This document shows, piece by piece, positions 507-58,764 of a stretch of 64,000 bases of DNA. The notes under the pieces were generated by a model. That model had not been told where the DNA came from. It saw only the letters and a list, made by a program, of their open reading frames with translations, and did no database searches. This stretch comes from a virus (Duplodnaviria > Caudoviricetes). The stretch lies in IMG/VR virus record IMGVR_UViG_3300032050_000002; one strand, 5' to 3'. Position numbers and translations under genes: made by a program. Position 1 is the stretch's first letter, and each line of letters begins with the position of its first letter.

Positions 507-1778
507 GTGATTACAGAGAAACTAAAACAAATACCCAAATTTCCGGGTTGTTATCTATTCAAAGATGACAAAGACCAAATAATATATGTTGGGATGTCAA
601 AGTTCTTACCAAAGAGGGTGACATCCTATTTCCAAAAAAATCACGATAACGAAAAAACAAAGTATCTTGTTGAACAGATAACTGATGTTGACTTTGTTAT
701 TACTTCTTCTGAACAAGAGGCAATTCTAATGGAGGAAGAACTTATAAAGATATATAAACCAAAGTTTAATATCAAAGGTAAGGATGATAAATCAAGGAAA
801 TGGTCGATTTGTTTAACTGATGAAAGATATCCAAGACTTGAGATTGTTAGAAACAAAACTAATGATTCGCCAAGTCTTGACTTCACCAGTGGTTTTCTAT
901 GTAGAGAGGTGTTTAATCTTATTCACGATATTGTTGAACTAAGAACCTGTTCGTATGAATTATCTGAGAAAAACATTGAAGAAAGTAAAATCAAACCTTG
1001 TCTTGAATTACAAATGAAAAGGTGTTTAGGTCCTTGTAATGGTGATATAACAGAACTATTATACAAATCAAAGATACTAATTGTAAAACAAATCTTTGAA
1101 CTTAATATCGATTCTGTTAAAAAAGGTATGGTAAAAACAATGAAGTATTTTGCCGATACTATGGAATACGAGAAGGCAAATGATATTAAAGTTAGAATGG
1201 AATATCTTAAAACTCTTGAAACAAAGTTAGAAACAATTAGGATAAGAAAATCAAACAAAAAAGCATTTGAACTTAAAAAACTATTGGGGCTTAACTTTAT
1301 TCCAAATATCATTGAAGCGTTTGATAACTCACATAATCAGGGCGATTCTAATGTTGCTGCTTCAGTTAGGTTTGTAAACGGAATACCAAACAAAAGTGAT
1401 TATAGAAAATATAATATCAAAAGTTTTACCGGTGTAGATGACTACGCGTCCTTTGATGAGGTATTAACAAGAAGGTTTAAAAGATTAATTGAAGAGAAAG
1501 GACAACTACCAAACCTGGTATTAATTGATGGTGGAAAAGGACAACTAAATGTTGCAAAGAAAGTATTTGATGAACTTGGATTAACTGATAAGATTGATTT
1601 AATATCGGTGTCAAAAGATGACAATCATAAATCATCCATAATACATACAACAAATGGTAAAACTTATAGTATATTGAGTAATACTAATTATAGTTTGTTA
1701 GGAAAGGTTCAAGAAGAGGTTCACAGGTTTGCGATTAACTTCCACAGAAAAAAAGAAAGTAAAAAGATTTTTTTATGA
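507..1778 (+). CDS. uvrC: Excinuclease ABC subunit C-like (GIY-YIG + UVR + RNase H-like), no C-terminal HhH domain
   Basis: PGCYLF...IIYVGMSK (GIY-YIG), MEYEKA (UVR), EAFDNSH...DDYASF.EVL.RRF...LVLIDGGKGQL; ends at RFAINFHRKK, where UvrC normally continues into HhH. GTG start 4 nt after TATCTTTG. Confidence 0.9.
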   Translation: MITEKLKQIPKFPGCYLFKDDKDQIIYVGMSKFLPKRVTSYFQKNHDNEKTKYLVEQITDVDFVITSSEQEAILMEEELIKIYKPKFNIKGKDDKSRKWSICLTDERYPRLEIVRNKTNDSPSLDFTSGFLCREVFNLIHDIVELRTCSYELSEKNIEESKIKPCLELQMKRCLGPCNGDITELLYKSKILIVKQIFELNIDSVKKGMVKTMKYFADTMEYEKANDIKVRMEYLKTLETKLETIRIRKSNKKAFELKKLLGLNFIPNIIEAFDNSHNQGDSNVAASVRFVNGIPNKSDYRKYNIKSFTGVDDYASFDEVLTRRFKRLIEEKGQLPNLVLIDGGKGQLNVAKKVFDELGLTDKIDLISVSKDDNHKSSIIHTTNGKTYSILSNTNYSLLGKVQEEVHRFAINFHRKKESKKIFL

Positions 1779-5533: not shown

Positions 5534-5668
5534 CTATTACAGATATATTTAGGTTTTCTGATATTTATATATAAAATAAAATTATGAGCAAAGAAATGAG
5601 AAAATACATAGACACTTTCAAACAGAGACTAACTGAATCAGAAAACTTGAATATATCTGATGTTAGTG
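5528..5668 (+). mobile_element. attC-like site C with TATTTAT motif, ATG and leader peptide inside its loop
   Basis: Arms CAGATATATTTAGGTTTTCTGAT (5540-5562) / ATCAGAAAACTTGAATATATCTG (5637-5659), flanked by CCTAAC and GTTAGTG. Confidence 0.75.
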
Positions 5669-5871
5669 ATAGTAATCAATTCAAAGTAGGGGATAAAGTT
5701 ATAAAAAACGAAGAAACTTGGGAACCAAATGATTTTGATAGTTGGGGAAGAGGAATTGGTGTGGGAATTATAGTTGAGCCTCCTTTTGAAATGGATGAAG
5801 GTGAAGTTGATGTAAGATGGCCTAATGGTAGAAGTTTTGAATTCACACACCAATTACGAAAGGTGAATTGA
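5584..5871 (+). CDS. Fusion ORF: attC-encoded leader (aa 1-26) + cassette 3 domain
   Basis: Codon 27 is the GTT recombination triplet (5662); cassette ends 5662-5682 / 5865-5885 are 20/21 complementary. Confidence 0.7.
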   Translation: MSKEMRKYIDTFKQRLTESENLNISDVSDSNQFKVGDKVIKNEETWEPNDFDSWGRGIGVGIIVEPPFEMDEGEVDVRWPNGRSFEFTHQLRKVN

Positions 5872-5878
5872 TTATTAT

Positions 5879-5932
5879 CACTAACGTCCGATGATAAACA
5901 ATCGTTTTAATGTTGTTTATCATTTGTTAGGT
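5879..5932 (+). mobile_element. attC-like site D
   Basis: CACTAAC-gtccg-ATGATAAACAA...TTGTTTATCAT-tt-GTTAGGT; copy of site A. Confidence 0.75.
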
Positions 5933-5990
5933 TTAGTTAAATTATTGTTTTACGAATGAAAAAAACAGATTATTACGAAATTTATATTTA

Positions 5991-6020
5991 AAACCTGAAA
6001 TAATTTTTCAGGTTTTTTTT
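5991..6020 (+). terminator. Intrinsic terminator closing the cassette region
   Basis: AAACCTGAAA-loop-TTTCAGGTTT + T run. Confidence 0.75.
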
Positions 6021-6053
6021 GTTTAATTCAAATTAATTTTGTATCTTTGTATT

Positions 6054-6698
6054 ATGGAAACCGATAAAAAGACATATAATAAAGAGATTGATGAGGCGGT
6101 TGAACGTGTTAACAACGGTCAGTTTGTATCAAATGAAGAAGTTATGAAAGAGATTGATGAATTGTTTGTTAAACCGGTAATCTTCCTCGACCACGATGGT
6201 GTCATCTGCCTTTCAACGGAATGGGGTTCTCGTTTCAAAAATAAAGAAGGATTGGACTCTGTATTTGACCGATTTAATGATAAAGCGATTAAGGTATTAA
6301 ATCAGATTATTGAAGAAACAGATTGTGAAATTGTTATTAGTTCGGATTGGCGTTTTCACGCACCATTAGAACAGATGCAAGAACTTTATCGTATTCGTGG
6401 AGTTAAGAAAGTTCCGATTGATTATACCACAACTGGTTTAGATTGGAAACAATTTATGACTATAACACCAAATAATGAACTTGAAGCAACACGTAGTTTT
6501 GAGATTTTAAATTGGTTGGAGGCACATCCCGATGTTACAAAGTGGGTTGCGGTTGATGATTTGAATATGAAGGAACAATACGGTGGTATCGATGGAAACT
6601 ATAAATATGGTTTAACAAACTTTGTTCATACTCCCCGTTCAAAAGAAGGTATTAAACAATCAGGAGTCAAAGAAAAGATAATTAAGTTTTTAAAATAA
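6054..6698 (+). CDS. HAD-superfamily protein (phage RNA-repair/Swiss-Army-knife HAD type)
   Basis: IFLDHDGV, IVISSDWR, WVAVDDL; leaderless ATG 6054 after TTTG(6018)-N20-TATCTTTG(6042). Confidence 0.75.
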   Translation: METDKKTYNKEIDEAVERVNNGQFVSNEEVMKEIDELFVKPVIFLDHDGVICLSTEWGSRFKNKEGLDSVFDRFNDKAIKVLNQIIEETDCEIVISSDWRFHAPLEQMQELYRIRGVKKVPIDYTTTGLDWKQFMTITPNNELEATRSFEILNWLEAHPDVTKWVAVDDLNMKEQYGGIDGNYKYGLTNFVHTPRSKEGIKQSGVKEKIIKFLK

Positions 6699-7182: not shown

Positions 7183-7308
7183 AGTCAGGTGGCGGAATTG
7201 GTAGACGCTAGAGCTGGAGTTAGGTCACACGCATTTGGGTTCGAGTCCCGTTAGTTGGGCCAGCTAGGAGAGCCGTAGACCGTGTGGGTTCAAATCCCAC
7301 CCTGACTA
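7183..7308 (+). ncRNA. tRNA-like RNA 2 (126 nt), Leu-type D arm, internal second T-loop hairpin
   Basis: AGTCAGG TG GCGGAATTGGTAGACGC ... GTGGG-TTCAAAT-CCCAC CCTGACT A. Confidence 0.7.
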
Positions 7309-47257: not shown

Positions 47258-47849
47258 TGAAATTATTTATATTATATAAATATGAAAAAGATATTTATTA
47301 TTCCTTTAATTTTATTATTTGGTTGTGAATATAAACAACCCAAACAAATAACAAAAAAATGTGTTATACAAAGTTTTAAAATAAAACAATCAATATCTAC
47401 AATAGAACCTGAACCCGTATATTTATATTATACCGATTGTGGTAACACTATAAAAACAAAAAGTAAGTATCATGTTGGTGATACAATAACTTATATAACT
47501 AATATAACTAGATAATATGGGAAGTTCATATAGAAAATTAAAAACTATTTTAGAATCAAATCTTTCACTTGAAAAAAGATATTTGTTAAGAGAGCAAGCT
47601 CCATCAACAGGTGCAACTACAGGTAATACAACCACAACAACAACCGCAGCCCCAACAACCACAACTACGACAACGGTAAAAAAAATTACAGATAAGGATA
47701 TTACTAATATGCCTAAGTGTTCAAGTTTTAAAGGTGCGTTTACAGGTGCGTCATCCGCTAAAACTGAAAATTTTATAATTTACTATAAAGACAATTTAAA
47801 ATGTAAAAAACCTATTGAATCTGAGGAATAATTTTCTTAGATTTGATAT

Positions 47850-48464
47850 ATGAATAAATTAGATAAAGATTATCAAAACCTATTAAGGGATATTTTACAA
47901 AATGGAACCAAAAAGCAAGACAGAACTGGAACAGGAACACTCTCAGTATTTGGAAGACAATTTAGACATGATTTTCGGGACGGATTTCCTCTCCTCACCA
48001 CAAAACGAATGGCTTTTAAACAGATTGTTACAGAACTCATCTGGTTCCTCCGAGGAGACACAAACATCAAATTCTTAGTTAATAATAATTGTCACATTTG
48101 GGATGGTGATGCTTATAAGAATTGGTGTAGACAATTTGAAGTTGACCCAAATAATTTTGATACCGAAGAATTATCTAAAGGTCATAATGACCAATGTTGG
48201 GGTTACTCCATATTAGACCACGTTAAACCTACATCAAAAGAATATAAAAGAGGTCAAATAAATGCTTATTTAGAAGGTAAAGCAGATAAACCTTTCTTTT
48301 ATTTAACACAAGAAGAATTCATCAACAAAATCAAAACCGATAATGAGTTTGCTAATAAGTGGGGTGAATTAGGGCCTGTGTATGGGGCTGGTTGGCGTAA
48401 TTGGGGTGGTAAATCAGATGACAATCTTTACGAAGATTATTTGAAAAAAGTTAAAGAAAAGTAG
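47850..48464 (+). CDS. thyA: Thymidylate synthase, N-terminal part
   Basis: [43 protein letters not shown] then stop. Confidence 0.9.
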
Positions 48465-48503
48465 TATTTTTCCATTTATTACCATATTTATATATAGTAA
48501 ACA

Positions 48504-49205
48504 ATGGTAATTATGGACTACAAAAGAATACACGACAACCTTATTGAAAGAGGAAAAAATAGAAAATTAGATGGATATGTTGAAAGACATCACATTATAC
48601 CAAAATGTATGAACGGGACAAATGAACCAAATAATTTAGTGGAATTAACAGCAAGAGAACATTTTTTAGTACATTGGTTATTACACGAAATGTATCCAGA
48701 AAATAGTGATTTAAGGTATGCCTTTTGGTCAATGTGTCGTAATTCAGATAACCAACAAAGATATAAACCATCTTCAAGGGTATATGAATATGCTAAACAT
48801 AAAATGTTAGAAATATGGCAAAAGTTCAAACCATCAGATAAACAAATAAATTCTATTAAAGAAAGTTTAACTGGAACTAAATGGTATCATAAACCAGATG
48901 GAACTAATTTAAGAGCATTTCCAAATGACCCAAAAATTAGTGATGAAGGATGGTTACCTGGTAGGTTTGGTGGTAAATCAATTTCTGATAAGGCTAACAA
49001 AGTTAAAGAGAAGAAATACGAAGGAAAGAAATTACCTTCAACATCAAACAAAAGATGTTCAATAGATGGTGTTGAATTTGAATCGGCTAAAGCGGCTGCG
49101 GACTTTCTTAATATAAATGAATTTTCTATTAGATGGATATTACAGGGTGGAGGTCGGTCAGAGAAACATAAAGAAAAATACAAAAATTGGTTCTATATAA
49201 AATGA
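48504..49205 (+). CDS. HNH homing endonuclease
   Basis: ERHHIIPKCMNGTNEPNNLVELTAREHFLVHWLL; own TATTTAT motif. Confidence 0.85.
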   Translation: MVIMDYKRIHDNLIERGKNRKLDGYVERHHIIPKCMNGTNEPNNLVELTAREHFLVHWLLHEMYPENSDLRYAFWSMCRNSDNQQRYKPSSRVYEYAKHKMLEIWQKFKPSDKQINSIKESLTGTKWYHKPDGTNLRAFPNDPKISDEGWLPGRFGGKSISDKANKVKEKKYEGKKLPSTSNKRCSIDGVEFESAKAAADFLNINEFSIRWILQGGGRSEKHKEKYKNWFYIK

Positions 49206-49615
49206 AAATAGAAATACCTTTATATGATATTAAAATTAAATTTTACTTTGACTATGATTTAGGTAAACCCATTAAAAAGATAAAGAAAAAACATAATAAG
49301 AAAAAACTTTATAATGTAAGAAGTAAAATTGATTTTTGTGGAATTGTTATTGGTGAGTTTATACCAAAGGATAAGTTAATTTATGTTTTAATAGAAAAAA
49401 CTAAAAAGGGTATTAATATAGATACATTAACTCACGAAATATATCATTTAACAACCAAAATAATGAAACACAATAACTTCAAGTTTAATAAAACAGATGA
49501 ACCTTTTGCGAGATTAAATGGGAAGTTAAATTCAATTATTATGTGTGAATTAATTAAACATGGTGAGAAGTTATATTACCCAATTGAAACTAAAAAGATA
49601 AAAATAAAATGGTAA
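49202..49615 (+). CDS. HExxH-containing hypothetical protein
   Basis: LTHEIYHLT...DEPFA. Confidence 0.5.
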   Translation: MKIEIPLYDIKIKFYFDYDLGKPIKKIKKKHNKKKLYNVRSKIDFCGIVIGEFIPKDKLIYVLIEKTKKGINIDTLTHEIYHLTTKIMKHNNFKFNKTDEPFARLNGKLNSIIMCELIKHGEKLYYPIETKKIKIKW

Positions 49616-50144
49616 AAATGATAAAACAAGAATGTTCATTATTACAGTTAGATATGACTGATGAACAAATAAATGAGTTAATAAAAATAAGTAAAGAAGA
49701 TTTAATTGAATCTAAAGGTAGTTTTGATGAAGATACTCTTTATAATTTATCATTATCTAATGTTAAATTACATTGGGTTAGATTTATTAGACAATACTCA
49801 AACAACCCACTTAATGAAATAATTGAGGTTGATAAGATTATCAATGAAGAAACATTAAAAGTTAAAACTTTATTAAAATAATATGTGTGATTTAATCTAC
49901 TTATTCAATTGCTGGTGGAAAACAGTAAGGAAAGGAAGACCTAATAAACGGTCATTTTTAATTTTTTCAAAAAGATTACAATTAGAAATAGAATGTTTGT
50001 TATGTACTGGTAGATTTACATCTGAGATTTAGTGTGATGGATAAAAAATATTGTGTATAACGTTTCGTGGCTATATTTAGTGCCGAATTAAATAGTATAA
50101 AATTTAAATAATAGATAAAATGAGTAAAGAAAAACAAACCATCA

Positions 50145-51083
50145 ATGAAGAAGTTGAAAGACAAAACGACAAAACGAATAAATAAAGCTATGGAGTATTT
50201 ACACGAAGATGGAACTCCTTTTACAAAAGAAGAGTTTCTACAAAAATTAAAAACAGATAAGGAATTTAATAATGAGTTCGGTAATAAAGGAATAGACCAA
50301 ATCGCAAACCTAATCAACGACCTCAAAACAAATCCAGACTCAAGAAGACTAATGGTTTCAGCTTGGAATGTAGGTGAATTAGACCAAATGGTTCTTCCTC
50401 CCTGTCATTATGGATTTCAAGTTTATACAAGAGAGTTGAGTGAGTTAGAAAGACATGATATTAAAGAACAATATGGGTTTGATTGTAGAAAATTAGCAAA
50501 ACCTTCTATTAAACAATTAGATGATGCGAACATCCCAACCAGAGCAATCTCTTTAATGTGGAATCAACGTTCAGTAGATACATTCTTAGGTTTACCATTT
50601 AATATTGCATCATATGGTTTACTACTTGAAATTATAGCTAAATCAGTTAATATGATACCTGATGAATTGATTGGTAACTTGGGTGATGTGCATTTATATT
50701 CAAACCATATTGAACAAGCTAAAGAACAGATTGGTAGAGAGTTAGATATAATTGAGAGAATAAATTACGGAGTTAATATTTTAGGTTATGAATCATTATT
50801 AGACTATGGCCATTCTCAGAATGAAGATGAATTAATAACAAAGTTATGTAATGAATGGGGTGTACCAAAAAGAACAAGAGAACCATATCCATTACCAACA
50901 TTAAACATCAATACAGAATTTTGGCCTTATGAAGGTGGTGAGTGTGGTGTAGGTCCTTTAGACGCTATTAAAGTGTTTGAAGCGTTTAAAAATGATAACT
51001 TCTGTAGATGTTTATTAGAAGAAGATATACAATTAGGTAACTATCAATCACACCAAACAATTAAAGCTCCCCTATCCAATTAA
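50145..51083 (+). CDS. thyA: Thymidylate synthase, C-terminal catalytic part (alt. start 50190)
   Basis: IDQI, PDSRRLMVSAWN, LPPCH, QRSVD.FLGLPFNIASY, GDVHLY.NH. Confidence 0.9.
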   Translation: MKKLKDKTTKRINKAMEYLHEDGTPFTKEEFLQKLKTDKEFNNEFGNKGIDQIANLINDLKTNPDSRRLMVSAWNVGELDQMVLPPCHYGFQVYTRELSELERHDIKEQYGFDCRKLAKPSIKQLDDANIPTRAISLMWNQRSVDTFLGLPFNIASYGLLLEIIAKSVNMIPDELIGNLGDVHLYSNHIEQAKEQIGRELDIIERINYGVNILGYESLLDYGHSQNEDELITKLCNEWGVPKRTREPYPLPTLNINTEFWPYEGGECGVGPLDAIKVFEAFKNDNFCRCLLEEDIQLGNYQSHQTIKAPLSN

Positions 51084-53196: not shown

Positions 53197-56100
53197 TTAA
53201 TCTATTTTAGAAAAAAGTGTTGTTAAATACTTTTTATTCTCATCATATATTGTTATTTGGTAGAAACCCGTATTCAAAAATCTTAAATCAACTTCATCTT
53301 CAGAATTTATATTTTTAGTTAAATAAACTTTACCTAATATATCTGAAACAACTAAATTAAATTTCTCACTTTCATTATGAAATATTCTTATTTGTAATAA
53401 ACCATTACCCGGATTCGGAAATACTATAAATTCAAAATCTTTATTATCTATTTCACCAAAACCAACTGTTTTTGATGTATTACAAACTTTAGTAACTCCA
53501 AAATAAGCCATTGGACTTGAACCACAAGTATTAACACCCATCACACTAAATGTACCACCCATAAAAGATGAGCTTGTTTTAGCCATAACACTATTTCCTG
53601 TTGTTGAACCAATAAATTGAGTTCCGTTAGAGTTATTCCAAATATAACTTGTAATTCTTGGAGATGTTGATGCAACTAATCTAATTGTATCAGGAAAACA
53701 AACCGATGAAGTTCCTGTAACAGTGGGTCTAACAGTCAATAAACCAACTTTCTTTTTACTTAATACACTACCACAAGCAAATTGTGTCGCTAATCTTATA
53801 CTATCACAAGAATTATTAATACAAGATGTGGATTCAAAATTACTTGGGAAAAATACGTCTATAGAGTTCGTTCCTTGACCTCTCACTATTTGAGCATTTC
53901 CTGGTACAGTCCAATTAAACGATAACGCTCCTGTTGTAGATACACTATACGTGTTAGTAAACCCATTATCAACACAATTAACACCACTTATACTAACACT
54001 TGGTAAACCCAAATCAACGGTTCTAATTCTTGTTATAGGATTTCCACATCCACCCGTAATTACAACTTGAATGTTTCCACCTGTAAAACCATTTTGGAAT
54101 GTTACATTAATTGAATTAGTTCCCTGACCACTAATTATTGTTGAGTTAGCAGGTACAGTCCACAAATAGTTAACTCCACTTATTGGACTAACACTAAACG
54201 TTGCAGGAGTGTTAGTTCCTACTAAACTACAAACACTTCTTACACCTGAAATTGCTGAAGCGGAAATTGTTGATGTTGTTGTTGATAGTGTTCTATTTGA
54301 AGATATACTTCCTCCACAACCATTGTTTAAGTTAACACTAATTGTTCCTGAACTAAATGAGTTAGATACTAATACATTTATTGAATTAGTTCCTTGACCC
54401 GATTGTATTGTCATATTAGTAGGAACAGTCCAAGTAAATGTTCCACTTTGATTTGTAACACTATAAGTAACTGATTGACCTAAGTACGGACACAAATCGC
54501 CAGGGCCTGTTATAGTTCCTATATTAGCGTAAAGATTATTATTAGATACAGTTCCATAAGTCATAGGTGATGAACCACATTTGTTAACTGACATCACACT
54601 AAATTGACCTGAAGTAAAGTTTGTACTAAATTTTACTTTAAGTGTGTCATTACTACTTGAACCTATTATACTAACACCATTAGGTACATTCCAAATATAC
54701 ATAAACGATGTAGGTACAGAATCGACTCTATAAGTGTAAATTGTATTACCATCAGCACAAACTGTTGTAGGTCCTAAGATAGACGTAGGTCTAACAACTA
54801 ATCTATCAATCGTAAATTGAGTTGTACTACTTCCACAAGAATTTGTTGCAGTAACTGAACCACCTGAACCACTTACCAACATTATTGACACTTTAAATTG
54901 TACAGTATCGTTACCTTGTCCACTATATATATTAACTCCATAAGGTACAACCCAATTATAAGTCATATTTGGTTGTGAATTTGTTACAATGTATGATTTA
55001 ATACTACCTGTAGGTTCACCACAGAAACTACCTGATACGATTGGTTTATTAGGTAATTTAGTAACCCAAATACTTCTATGATAAGTAATACCATTAGAAA
55101 CAACATCAACTTCAATACTATCTTGAACGAACCCTGAAGAAAAATTAACATTTATTGTTGGGTTACTTAATCCATTAGTTGATGTTATACCATTAGGTAA
55201 AATCCAAGTAATACTTTCAGGACTTGCGTTAGAATAATCAATGGTATATGAACCAGAACTAAGACCACATATTGAAGTGGGACCTTCTATTTGACCAACA
55301 TTAATAATTGCTGACGTACAACCCAAAGTCATTGGAGAAACTGATTGACAACCTTTAGAATCCGTAACAGTTAATGTGTAATTACCTGACGCGACGCCCG
55401 TTAAATTTTGTGTTGTTTGACCATTTGACCAACTGTATGTAAAAGGAGGAGTTCCACCAATAACACTACTACTTACAACACCATTATTTGAACCACAATT
55501 AGGGTAAGTTGTTATATCTAATGATATACTAATTTCTGATGGTTGAGAAATATTAATATATGTAATTTTTGTACAACCTTTATTATCTGTAACAGTAATT
55601 TGATAATTACCTGATGTTAAATTAGAAATACTACTTTGAGTATTTCCTGTATTCCACATATAAAGATAAGGTAGAGTTCCTCCTGACGCAGTAACCGAAG
55701 CGCTACCATTATTACCACCATAACAATTCACATTTGTCGTTGTTACAATTGTTGTTAGTTGAGTTGGTTGAGTTATTGTAACCGTTCTTGTCGTCTGACA
55801 CCCCTTTGAATCCGTAACTGTTACACTATAAGTGTTTGCCACAAGTGAGAAAATATCTTCTGTTGTTTGACCATTACTCCATAAGTAAGTATAAGGTGAT
55901 GTTCCTCCTGATGGAGTTAAGTTTATACTACCGCCAGGTTGTCCAAAACAACTTGGGTTAAAACTAGTTGATGTTGAGGCAAGTAACGTAGGTTGAGTAA
56001 TTGTGATTGATGTAGTTGATGTACAACCATAAAAATCTGTGACTGTAACTGAATAATCTCCTGATGTTAGGTTTGATATGTCCTCAGTAGTTCCACCATT

Positions 56101-58764
56101 AGACCAATTAAAATTAAAAGGTGAATTACCTAACGGAGTTAAATCTATACTACCATTATTACCACCATTACAACTAACATTAACACTTGTTGTTGATAAT
56201 ATAGAAGGAAATCTAACAGTCCAAGAAGTTAATACATCATAAGCATTGTTAGAACATCCAATACCTGTAGAACAATCACCTCTGCGACCTCTTATTTGAA
56301 CTACACTTCCGGCGGTTAGTGATGTTGTAGATATTAAAGTTCCTGGAGTATAACTTTGCCAAGATGTACCATTAATAGTGTATTGAAATATATCTGAACA
56401 GTTTATACCATTACTACCCGAATTGAATGTCGCTGATACATCACTACCAACACAAACATTGTTTGAGTTGGGTGTTTTAGTATTTAAAGTTGGATTAATT
56501 GGGTCAGGAATTACATTAACGGTATGAACGGGTGAGGTTCCTACACACCCTTTAGAATCTGTAACTACTACTCTATAATCTCTTGTTGATGTAGGTGTTG
56601 CGTTTATTGTTGTGGTTGTAACACTGTTTTGCCAAGTAGAGTTAAAAAATTGCCATTGATAAAAATAAGTTGGAAATCCCGATGTTACAGTTGAAGTTAT
56701 ATTATTAGTTCCCGAACCTCCAGCACATATCTGACTTGTGTAAGTGTTTAAGGTGACAGATGGGTTTGTTGCGGTAGTTAACGACACAGTATTTGAATTA
56801 ACAGATTGATTACAAGTATTTGTAATACTAACATAATAATTTCCTAATGTTGATGTAGAATAAGTCGATGAGTTAGCCCCTGATATTGGATTGTTATTTA
56901 AAAACCATTGATAAGTAAAAGGTTGTCTAACTCCTGATGCGGTAACTGAAAAAGTTACTTGTGATGTACAAGTTGTTTCATTAATAGGTTGTGTAGTTAT
57001 TGTTGGCGGTGAAGAAGTGTAATTAACTGATAATTGAAATGTTCCTCTTGCATTACTATAACCTGTAACCATCACATAATATTCTGTTAAATCTGTTGTT
57101 GCAAATGTAACTTCAGAACGAGTACTACAAAAATCATCACTATAGGTTAAACAAGTAAGTGCTCCACAAGTTCCTGTATATACAAATAATTTAGTATCAA
57201 AAGAAGTTCCTGTACATAAACTTAATGTTACATTTTGTCCGTTACCAATAACCTTATACCAAACCCCTGGTGCAGTCCAAGTCTCAGAGCCACCGTTATA
57301 ACAACTTGGTGAATCACCTGTTTGAGTCGCATTTTGAGTACTACCATTGAAAGTTGTATTACAAGAGGTGATAATCGCTCCTGAACATTCATCATTTGAA
57401 GGTGGTGGAATTGTACACTGAACACTTCTTGTTCTTATTGTTACTGATTCTCCACATGAGTTATTTGTATGAGTATAAAATCTCACAGTTTCGTTTGAAC
57501 TTGGTGTATAAACAACTGGTGTTGTCCCGTAAACTAAAACTGTTGTTCCTCCATTATTACTAATAGTTATAAAATCTGTTAACACCGAACTTCTAAATGT
57601 ATATTGAATTCCTCCTGTTAAACTAACCACTGAGTATTCACCCGCGTAACCACCTGTTGTAATATTTTCTTGAGTTCCTGAACAAGTTGGTGTGTATGTT
57701 GATGTCGGCCATTGACCATTTGAAGCGGTTAGACATCCAGGACCTGAAGTTGTAAATGTCCATACCGAACATCCTATAGCATTACCTGCAGAATTCTTTG
57801 GGATTATTTGCCAATAATATTGTGTGTTATAACTTAATGTTGATGGAGTATATGTTGTTCCAACTTGGTTAACAACAAAAGGTGGAGACGAATTTGACCC
57901 AAAATAAACATCATAACTTGTTGCACCAGATACCGCTCCCCAAGTTAAAGTAGGTCCTATAAATACACCCGTTTGATTATTTGTTGGCGATGTTAAAGTT
58001 GCACAAATAGGAACCGCTTGATAAGTTAATATAACTCTACCCGCAGCACCTCCACCACCAGCTCTACCTGTTGTATTATTTTTATACGCACCGCCACCTC
58101 CACCACCTGGAGATACACCTGACGAACCTGCTCCACCTGAAGAGTGACCACTACCACCATTACCTCCACCAGCAGGTGCGGTAGCTCCCGCAGTTCCCGT
58201 TGCATCAACACCGGCTAAAGTAGTTCCTGCTGATGAGCCCCCTCCTCCCGAAGTTACCCCACCAACTCTACCACTACCACCCCTACTTGATGTTCCTATA
58301 CACCCTGTTGTAGAACCAACTCCAGCAGTAGTTCCAACTGCACTTTGTCCGCCCTTAGCGACAACACCGTTAGTTGATACTGTAGGGGCAATGTTTGACA
58401 ATTTACTAACCCAAGTATCATTACCGTTAGATGCGTTACCTTGAACTCCAGCTCTTGCTGCTCCAACACTATAATAAATTGTTTGACCAGGTGTTACAGA
58501 TATTGTTGTTGTTGAACGAGAACCTCCCGCTCCGCCCGCAAATCCCCCTGTTCCTGATGTTGATTGTCCGGCACCAGCTCCACCACCACCCCAAGCATCA
58601 ATTTTAATTGAGTATACGTTAGCAGGGACAGTCCAAGTTCCTGATGATGTTCCAACATTTGCTCCTGAGGCGGGCATTGTTTGAGAAAAATTTTTAAGAT
58701 TACATAAAATAAAAATAGATAAGAATAGGGTCTTAAAAAATGATGATAAAGTAAGAGGTTTCAT
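53197..58764 (-). CDS. 1855-aa adhesin-like T9SS cargo (Gly-rich, FnIII, SprB repeats, PKD-like, T9SS CTD)
   Basis: Signal peptide; CNGGNNGSIDL...WSNG.TTEDI..L..G.YSVTVTD..GC repeats; C-terminal VFPNP...DILGK...L.TGFY. Confidence 0.85.
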   Translation of the reverse strand: MKPLTLSSFFKTLFLSIFILCNLKNFSQTMPASGANVGTSSGTWTVPANVYSIKIDAWGGGGAGAGQSTSGTGGFAGGAGGSRSTTTISVTPGQTIYYSVGAARAGVQGNASNGNDTWVSKLSNIAPTVSTNGVVAKGGQSAVGTTAGVGSTTGCIGTSSRGGSGRVGGVTSGGGGSSAGTTLAGVDATGTAGATAPAGGGNGGSGHSSGGAGSSGVSPGGGGGGAYKNNTTGRAGGGGAAGRVILTYQAVPICATLTSPTNNQTGVFIGPTLTWGAVSGATSYDVYFGSNSSPPFVVNQVGTTYTPSTLSYNTQYYWQIIPKNSAGNAIGCSVWTFTTSGPGCLTASNGQWPTSTYTPTCSGTQENITTGGYAGEYSVVSLTGGIQYTFRSSVLTDFITISNNGGTTVLVYGTTPVVYTPSSNETVRFYTHTNNSCGESVTIRTRSVQCTIPPPSNDECSGAIITSCNTTFNGSTQNATQTGDSPSCYNGGSETWTAPGVWYKVIGNGQNVTLSLCTGTSFDTKLFVYTGTCGALTCLTYSDDFCSTRSEVTFATTDLTEYYVMVTGYSNARGTFQLSVNYTSSPPTITTQPINETTCTSQVTFSVTASGVRQPFTYQWFLNNNPISGANSSTYSTSTLGNYYVSITNTCNQSVNSNTVSLTTATNPSVTLNTYTSQICAGGSGTNNITSTVTSGFPTYFYQWQFFNSTWQNSVTTTTINATPTSTRDYRVVVTDSKGCVGTSPVHTVNVIPDPINPTLNTKTPNSNNVCVGSDVSATFNSGSNGINCSDIFQYTINGTSWQSYTPGTLISTTSLTAGSVVQIRGRRGDCSTGIGCSNNAYDVLTSWTVRFPSILSTTSVNVSCNGGNNGSIDLTPLGNSPFNFNWSNGGTTEDISNLTSGDYSVTVTDFYGCTSTTSITITQPTLLASTSTSFNPSCFGQPGGSINLTPSGGTSPYTYLWSNGQTTEDIFSLVANTYSVTVTDSKGCQTTRTVTITQPTQLTTIVTTTNVNCYGGNNGSASVTASGGTLPYLYMWNTGNTQSSISNLTSGNYQITVTDNKGCTKITYINISQPSEISISLDITTYPNCGSNNGVVSSSVIGGTPPFTYSWSNGQTTQNLTGVASGNYTLTVTDSKGCQSVSPMTLGCTSAIINVGQIEGPTSICGLSSGSYTIDYSNASPESITWILPNGITSTNGLSNPTINVNFSSGFVQDSIEVDVVSNGITYHRSIWVTKLPNKPIVSGSFCGEPTGSIKSYIVTNSQPNMTYNWVVPYGVNIYSGQGNDTVQFKVSIMLVSGSGGSVTATNSCGSSTTQFTIDRLVVRPTSILGPTTVCADGNTIYTYRVDSVPTSFMYIWNVPNGVSIIGSSSNDTLKVKFSTNFTSGQFSVMSVNKCGSSPMTYGTVSNNNLYANIGTITGPGDLCPYLGQSVTYSVTNQSGTFTWTVPTNMTIQSGQGTNSINVLVSNSFSSGTISVNLNNGCGGSISSNRTLSTTTSTISASAISGVRSVCSLVGTNTPATFSVSPISGVNYLWTVPANSTIISGQGTNSINVTFQNGFTGGNIQVVITGGCGNPITRIRTVDLGLPSVSISGVNCVDNGFTNTYSVSTTGALSFNWTVPGNAQIVRGQGTNSIDVFFPSNFESTSCINNSCDSIRLATQFACGSVLSKKKVGLLTVRPTVTGTSSVCFPDTIRLVASTSPRITSYIWNNSNGTQFIGSTTGNSVMAKTSSSFMGGTFSVMGVNTCGSSPMAYFGVTKVCNTSKTVGFGEIDNKDFEFIVFPNPGNGLLQIRIFHNESEKFNLVVSDILGKVYLTKNINSEDEVDLRFLNTGFYQITIYDENKKYLTTLFSKID

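Follow-up and report, generated by a model that had tools for sequence, protein, structure and literature searches.

Thymidylate synthase genes apparently carried in two or three pieces by environmental phages, with parts of a native ThyA module at the breaks

Results and Discussion

Judged from their sequences, many environmental phages carry the thymidylate synthase gene thyA as two, and sometimes three, separate genes, and the split appears to be old and conserved. In the 64,000-nucleotide stretch of viral DNA analysed here (the window), the two halves are separate, intact ORFs under selection. The first half ends in a short conserved tail and the second begins with a conserved head, and tail and head together are one copy of a three-helix module that is native to the ThyA of these phages. 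We propose, with considerable confidence, that this is a genes-in-pieces thymidylate synthase. In all likelihood each half would be translated from its own ATG and the chains would assemble non-covalently into a normal (N+C)2 enzyme. The tail helix probably docks on the head helices and so re-forms the module, which would act as a clasp and would allow selfish nuclease genes to occupy the gap with no need of an intron. Annotators are likely to call such genes broken thyA.

Layout of the split locus

The window is AT-rich (about 29% GC) and dense in small ORFs, and we infer that it belongs to a large phage of a Bacteroidota host. A 1855-aa protein encoded on the minus strand at 53197-58764, with SprB, PKD and type IX secretion tail domains, points to such a host. 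All relatives of the thyA locus were found on contigs of viral or metagenome origin, none longer than 430 kb, and none in GTDB genomes. Just before thyA-N, positions 47838-47845 (plus strand, as are all features of the locus given below) match TAnnTTTG, which we take to be the Bacteroidota -7 promoter consensus; this is a consensus match only.

thyA-N (47850-48464) encodes 204 aa, stops at TAG and contains R25, E62, W84 and Y178, the equivalents of E. coli R21, E58, W80 and Y94, and thyA-C (50190-51083) encodes 297 aa with the RR, PCH, RSxD, Asn and HxY motifs and the conserved C-terminus. The N-half matches positions 1-107 of Pfam PF00303 and the C-half positions 104-226, so the halves are complementary, and the gap between them measures 1725 nt, a multiple of three. 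An earlier reading of the window from sequence alone (the sequence-only reading) had described thyA as two intact ORFs around a multi-gene insert with an HNH gene and two or three further ORFs, and this description is borne out. The gap contains a free-standing HNH nuclease gene (48504-49205; 233 aa, intact ORF; phrog_655, E 8e-48), a cargo ORF of 137 aa (49202-49615; phrog_1365, unknown function) that also occurs in site-1 and site-2 gaps elsewhere, a cargo ORF of 90 aa (49609-49881) with no relative among the loci fetched, a short ORF of 49 aa (49883-50032) for which no relative was found and which may not be a gene, and a 21-aa remnant (50120-50185) of a 55-aa cargo gene that is whole in L204, L260 and L279. 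In another assembly (L209) the nuclease copy is 98% identical and identity to the window is 94% across 1.2 kb of the gap; near-identical layouts of this kind, recovered in separate assemblies, speak against an assembly artefact. A PDB sequence search with the nuclease gave no match.

The start of the C-half had been placed at 50145, and a likeness had been pointed out between MKKLKDK there and LKKVKEK at the end of the N-half. Neither point was upheld. The longer C-half frame that begins at 50145 reads through the cargo remnant in the wrong frame, and MKKLKDK is nothing else, so the resemblance of the flanks is meaningless. Moreover, a Met stands 5-13 residues ahead of the conserved head motif in 35/35 alleles and relatives do not conserve the Met at 50145, so thyA-C most likely starts at the ATG at 50190, 45 nt downstream.

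Conservation and selection

Searches with the halves and with the head yielded 35 distinct complete alleles broken at the same place as the window (site 1), against 94 uninterrupted ones; these counts depend on the queries used and are not frequencies, and L181 was reassigned by hand from site 1 to site 2. The comparison with uninterrupted alleles, proposed in the sequence-only reading, places the break in a loop that is hypervariable in them, where it holds 5-92 aa. The tail is present at the end of the N-chain in all site-1 alleles and the head at the start of the C-chain in nearly all, with L193, Y194, Y197 and L198 of the tail invariant in the site-1 alignment. The catalytic Cys-His, RR, RSxD, Asn and HxY and the N-terminal Arg, Glu, Trp and Tyr were all found, and the catalytic columns are invariant across 34 aligned alleles. 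Values of pN/pS were 0.095/0.39 for the tail, 0.074/0.73 for the head and 0.16/0.66 for the C core, similar to those in intact alleles. No second thyA or thyX was seen in four contigs of 129-166 kb that are 40-55% complete.

These values indicate purifying selection on both halves and on both new ends, in agreement with the earlier view that both halves look intact. Non-functional halves, kept by nuclease drive while the host supplies dTMP, could be imagined from the decayed cases, namely L194 (on the same contig as L308), where the cassette lies in a decayed thyA, and P0002 and P0047, which look similar. We regard this as very improbable given the selection on cores and ends, the intact ORFs in more than 50 split alleles and the persistence of splits after loss of the nuclease.

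Origin and fold of the tail and head

The native variable small-domain module of these ThyA proteins, encoded at 48099-48365 in the window, consists of a helix, a variable loop and two helices; the window has a long version of the loop, which it shares with uninterrupted alleles (L072, 89.6% DNA identity). The conserved 17-aa tail of thyA-N (48411-48461) represents helix 1 of a duplicated copy of this module, and the conserved 34-aa head of thyA-C (50190-50291) represents its helices 2-3. Against an HMM of the native module, the joined tail and head scored 28.6 bits and the head of the window 28.3 bits, the head supplying most of the signal, whereas 68 control loops reached at most 4.4 bits and 200 shuffles at most 9.1 bits. 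The tail alone scored only 2-3 bits, so its homology is read from the fused allele described below. The observation that the start of the C-half paraphrases N-half sequence was therefore sound and proved to be the key: the paraphrase is one half of a duplicated subdomain, and the other half ends the N-chain.

In L218 and L219, whose assemblies may not be independent, tail and head are fused in frame. The DNA is identical to that of the split allele L217 on either side and the join lies at a 7-nt repeat, so we read these alleles as a natural re-fusion that probably arose by deletion. A model of the L218 protein (pLDDT 88.5) matched solved ThyA structures (TM by target 0.84-0.92), and its helices 143-152, 167-176 and 178-184 mirror the native helices 84-94, 107-116 and 118-124. 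Modelled alone, the 49-aa module was all-helical (pLDDT 84, pTM 0.61). Both models were built from a covalently fused natural allele and an alignment assembled for this analysis, so they show a foldable unit and not assembly in trans. A complex prediction for tail and head as separate peptides (30 and 38 aa) scored 0.22 against a mark of 0.32 and was counted neither way. Charge complementarity is not an obvious driver of assembly, since the tail has next to no net charge and the head is slightly acidic.

The same phages also encode a stand-alone family of proteins, each about 110 aa long, that includes the module and is built from the two variable modules of their ThyA (L044:2321-2662, L068:316-663, L182, L211, L056, L143), often with several copies upstream of thyA. 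It received no Pfam, PHROG or Atlas assignment. A fold search with the module gave a best Z of 2.9 in the PDB and no BFVD match at E<=0.001, and the ESM Atlas gave no usable match for the stand-alone relative, results that are uninformative on novelty or absence. At L194:3914-6276 the pieces of the decayed thyA are recombined with the stand-alone family at both ends.

The ThyA fold has a core sheet with strands contributed by both halves, as the L218 model also shows, and it can be asked whether the core pieces meet unaided in a two-chain enzyme, with tail and head kept for another job such as chain stability, dimer-of-heterodimer assembly or translation start. In one re-fused allele (L291, minus strand, close to the end of the locus) most of the module is gone, lost via a short tail-head repeat, which favours this reading. 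In Aeromonas phage Aeh1 the NrdA tails are unneeded for the heterodimer and essential for the higher oligomer (PMC3045599), so the role of the ThyA clasp may also differ from the one proposed. Yet one tail/head pair serves four structurally different loops, always in the order tail-gap-head, its invariant positions are hydrophobic and map to faces of the helices, and tail and head are two parts of one domain, all of which makes unaided assembly unlikely in our estimate.

Gap contents and the joining of the halves

Depending on the allele, the gap contains a nuclease gene of one of two HNH types, a GIY-YIG gene, or cargo alone. Gap lengths range from 77 to 1725 nt, with whole genes inside and all three frames represented, the stop codon is TAA, TAG or TGA, and the tail end is ragged by 4-12 residues. 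No DNA is common to all gaps, and 21 of 53 share none with that of the window. An alternative genetic code is ruled out by the varying stops and differing frames.

The sequence-only reading had reported no visible intron and had offered, besides an enzyme of two chains, an unrecognised splicing or bypass event; the two-chain alternative is well supported and the other disfavoured. A self-splicing intron or other RNA splicing that joins the halves has in its favour that thyA is a classic intron target and that a seamless joined form exists as DNA (L218). Rfam covariance models gave no intron match at the locus, a weak kind of silence since the same search missed an apparent group I intron in L420/L421. 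Splicing is nevertheless very unlikely, because the non-coding room amounts to only 45+4 nt in L055, where the gap is 45 nt, a nuclease gene and 4 nt, or to 77 nt in total in L282, and because the gaps have no DNA in common and fall in all three frames; the C-half has a conserved start codon of its own, the stop is ragged, and no conserved group I ribozyme core common to the alleles was found. Ribosomal bypass, frameshift or stop read-through in the style of T4 gene 60 would fit the window, where the gap is a multiple of three, the last codon is Lys and an in-frame Lys stands two codons before the head ATG, and bypass is associated with the mobA cassette in T4. However, a matching landing residue occurs in only 23/54 alleles and is mostly the common Lys, the gaps vary in length and contain whole genes, any of the three stops is used, and there is no stable structure at the landing side, which leaves this explanation a probability close to negligible.

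Inteins carry a Cys or Ser start and a His-Asn end. The added ends of the split ThyA lack such residues, total about 50 aa, are all-helical and match no intein family, and there is no HINT domain in two parts, which would span at least about 130 aa and have a nucleophile and a His-Asn end. Protein trans-splicing or ligation by a non-intein module is therefore hardly plausible, even though the layout mirrors that of fractured genes with split inteins (Dassa et al., PMC2677866). There too, two halves surround a free-standing nuclease gene and the paired end modules move as a unit, whereas inteins ligate the chains and remove themselves, and the thyA module has no splicing residues.

An RNA hairpin is predicted over the nuclease start codons (48471-48517) and contains the motif TATTTATA at 48485-48492. 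Its z values were -2.3 to -5.5 in seven alleles, and RNAalifold found no compensatory pairs in it. TATTTATA occurs 41 times in the whole window against 20 expected, often just upstream of genes, and is likely a late-promoter motif. With about an even chance, in our view, the nuclease would be restrained by the hairpin over its start and the late promoter would bypass the hairpin; the nuclease-start control described for Aeh1 mobE and I-TevI resembles this predicted arrangement.

Reuse at four break sites

The same tail/head pair flanks breaks at four loops of ThyA. At site 0 it is the native module itself that is interrupted, with GIY-YIG or other nuclease genes in its variable loop (L001, L041, L339-L354; 3 complete alleles and about a dozen more). 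Site 2 lies just before the catalytic PCH motif (16 alleles), and site 3 lies in the hairpin after PCH (L420, L421), where the genes bearing tail and head overlap and there is no nuclease. Three-piece thyA occurs in L167 (sites 0+1) and L214 (sites 1+2), the latter with a middle chain of 83 aa that has the head at one end and the tail at the other. The pair is also found in ThyA lineages without the native module (L324 and L422, site 2) and in divergent ThyA with a remote form of it (L321, L427). The module is thus portable within thyA genes. Neither the locus searches nor a profile search of 1.84 billion proteins found a module-split gene other than thyA, the 47 profile matches being pieces of ThyA, stand-alone proteins with the module and a single repeat protein. 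GTDB genomes gave no match to the head, and among INPHARED phages the sole match was the native module in an intact thyA. At L279:1510-2256 a chimeric head (front from site 1, back from site 2) occurs with the site-1 cargo pair, which shows that the two sites have exchanged sequence. In L420 (1340-1421) and L421 (343-510), already split at site 3, the apparent group I intron lies right after the QR codons and is followed by a GIY-YIG gene.

Patchy spread of the cassette

On a tree of the ThyA core blocks the site-1 state required 17 changes, at least 6 of them forced by well-supported branches; the ThyA core trees are weakly resolved and recombinant. An AU test rejected a single site-1 clade (p 4e-6), on a subset picked after the first tree and so of little weight. 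The thyA flanks of the window are closest to uninterrupted alleles. Four host-like codons ahead of the tail (48387-48398) travel with the cassette, reading GCT GGT TGG CGT in split alleles versus AAG CAA TGG AGA in intact ones, and Gly replaces the conserved Gln before the tail in 26/35 site-1 alleles versus 3/94 intact ones (L181 removed). The cassette has spread patchily over thyA backgrounds and has outlived its nuclease. Patchy spread and co-travelling codons are consistent with homing, and ordinary recombination also mixes these genes.

We consider it rather likely that the nuclease would cut uninterrupted thyA near the YG..WR codons, that homing would copy the cassette and that the changed codons would give immunity. 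A nuclease gene may first have invaded the native module at its variable loop (site 0) and so given rise to the cassette, the split module moving later to the other loops; we give this about even odds, and the direction of movement is inferred only. We also suggest, more tentatively and with some doubt, that tail and head could be a portable, self-assembling clasp of 50 residues which makes loop breaks harmless almost anywhere on the surface without splicing. If so, it would represent a separate class of mobile-element adaptor, drawn from a subdomain of the host enzyme itself, and would serve these selfish nucleases as introns and inteins serve others. It would also be a minimal, naturally occurring heterodimerisation tag that should function when grafted into other proteins.

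Comparison with known systems

By its sequence-level features, which are two complementary ORFs with their own start and stop, a free-standing nuclease gene and selected element-borne extensions, the arrangement would be of the same kind as the nrdA of Aeh1, split by mobE into nrdA-a and nrdA-b (Crona et al., PMC3045599; reviewed in PMC2988022), and the topoisomerase genes 39/60 of T4-type phages, split by the MobA element (Manning and Atkins, bioRxiv 10.1101/2022.08.31.505936). As in Aeh1, a free-standing HNH gene divides an essential nucleotide enzyme, neither an intron nor an intein is seen, the chains have gained C- and N-terminal tails, active-site residues are distributed over two chains, and a hairpin over the nuclease start is combined with a late promoter (here predicted). 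The enzyme is a different one, however. The Aeh1 tails had no database match and carry opposite charges, whereas the thyA tails, which together make up a subdomain of the host enzyme, show a hydrophobic pattern and recur at four sites, in three-piece genes and alongside several nuclease families. Function has been shown for the Aeh1 split, while split thyA is known here from sequence. The MobA case is alike in its conserved terminal extensions, its short host-like altered region, its spread among clades, the survival of the extensions where the nuclease has been lost or a GIY-YIG nuclease has taken its place, and its ability to re-fuse; it has a single insertion site and a translational bypass cassette, in contrast to the four sites, lack of a bypass signal and traceable extensions of split thyA.

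Group I introns of phage thyA (T4 td/I-TevI; Bacillus phages, PMC11878797) interrupt the same host gene with HNH and GIY-YIG nuclease passengers, whereas split thyA has no room for a ribozyme, other insertion sites and translated ends. In a further reviewed split gene, for a different enzyme, the split is likewise kept with or without a nuclease in the gap, and the review describes no reusable end module. Our literature search, with most subscription journals outside its scope, found no paper on a naturally split thyA. What sets the thyA case apart within this known kind is the host enzyme, the origin of the tails, the reuse at four sites, the three-piece products and the lack of a fixed nuclease family.

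The way in which split phage enzymes come together again and the source of their tails have been named as open questions (PMC2988022, PMC3045599). In thyA the origin of the tails is visible, and nature supplies more than 50 alleles, breaks at four points of a single small enzyme, three-piece forms and a re-fused control; with a simple E. coli growth selection the question is directly testable. Should the module be a stand-alone clasp, it would be a candidate small protein tag.

Other observations

In L082, at about 5550-6370, an uninterrupted thyA carries a 272-aa in-frame insertion, endonuclease-like by eye, in the site-1 loop. In L205:707-2464 a 50-aa stub of the thyA N-terminus is followed by a nuclease-like gene of 340 aa and after that by a fresh full thyA-N. 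Elsewhere in the window, a UvrC-like GIY-YIG and RNase H endonuclease gene is present at 507-1778 (plus strand). A tRNA-like gene of 126 nt at 7183-7308 (plus strand; Rfam 36 bits, no gene found by ARAGORN) has a long anticodon-arm insertion with a second T-loop-like sequence.
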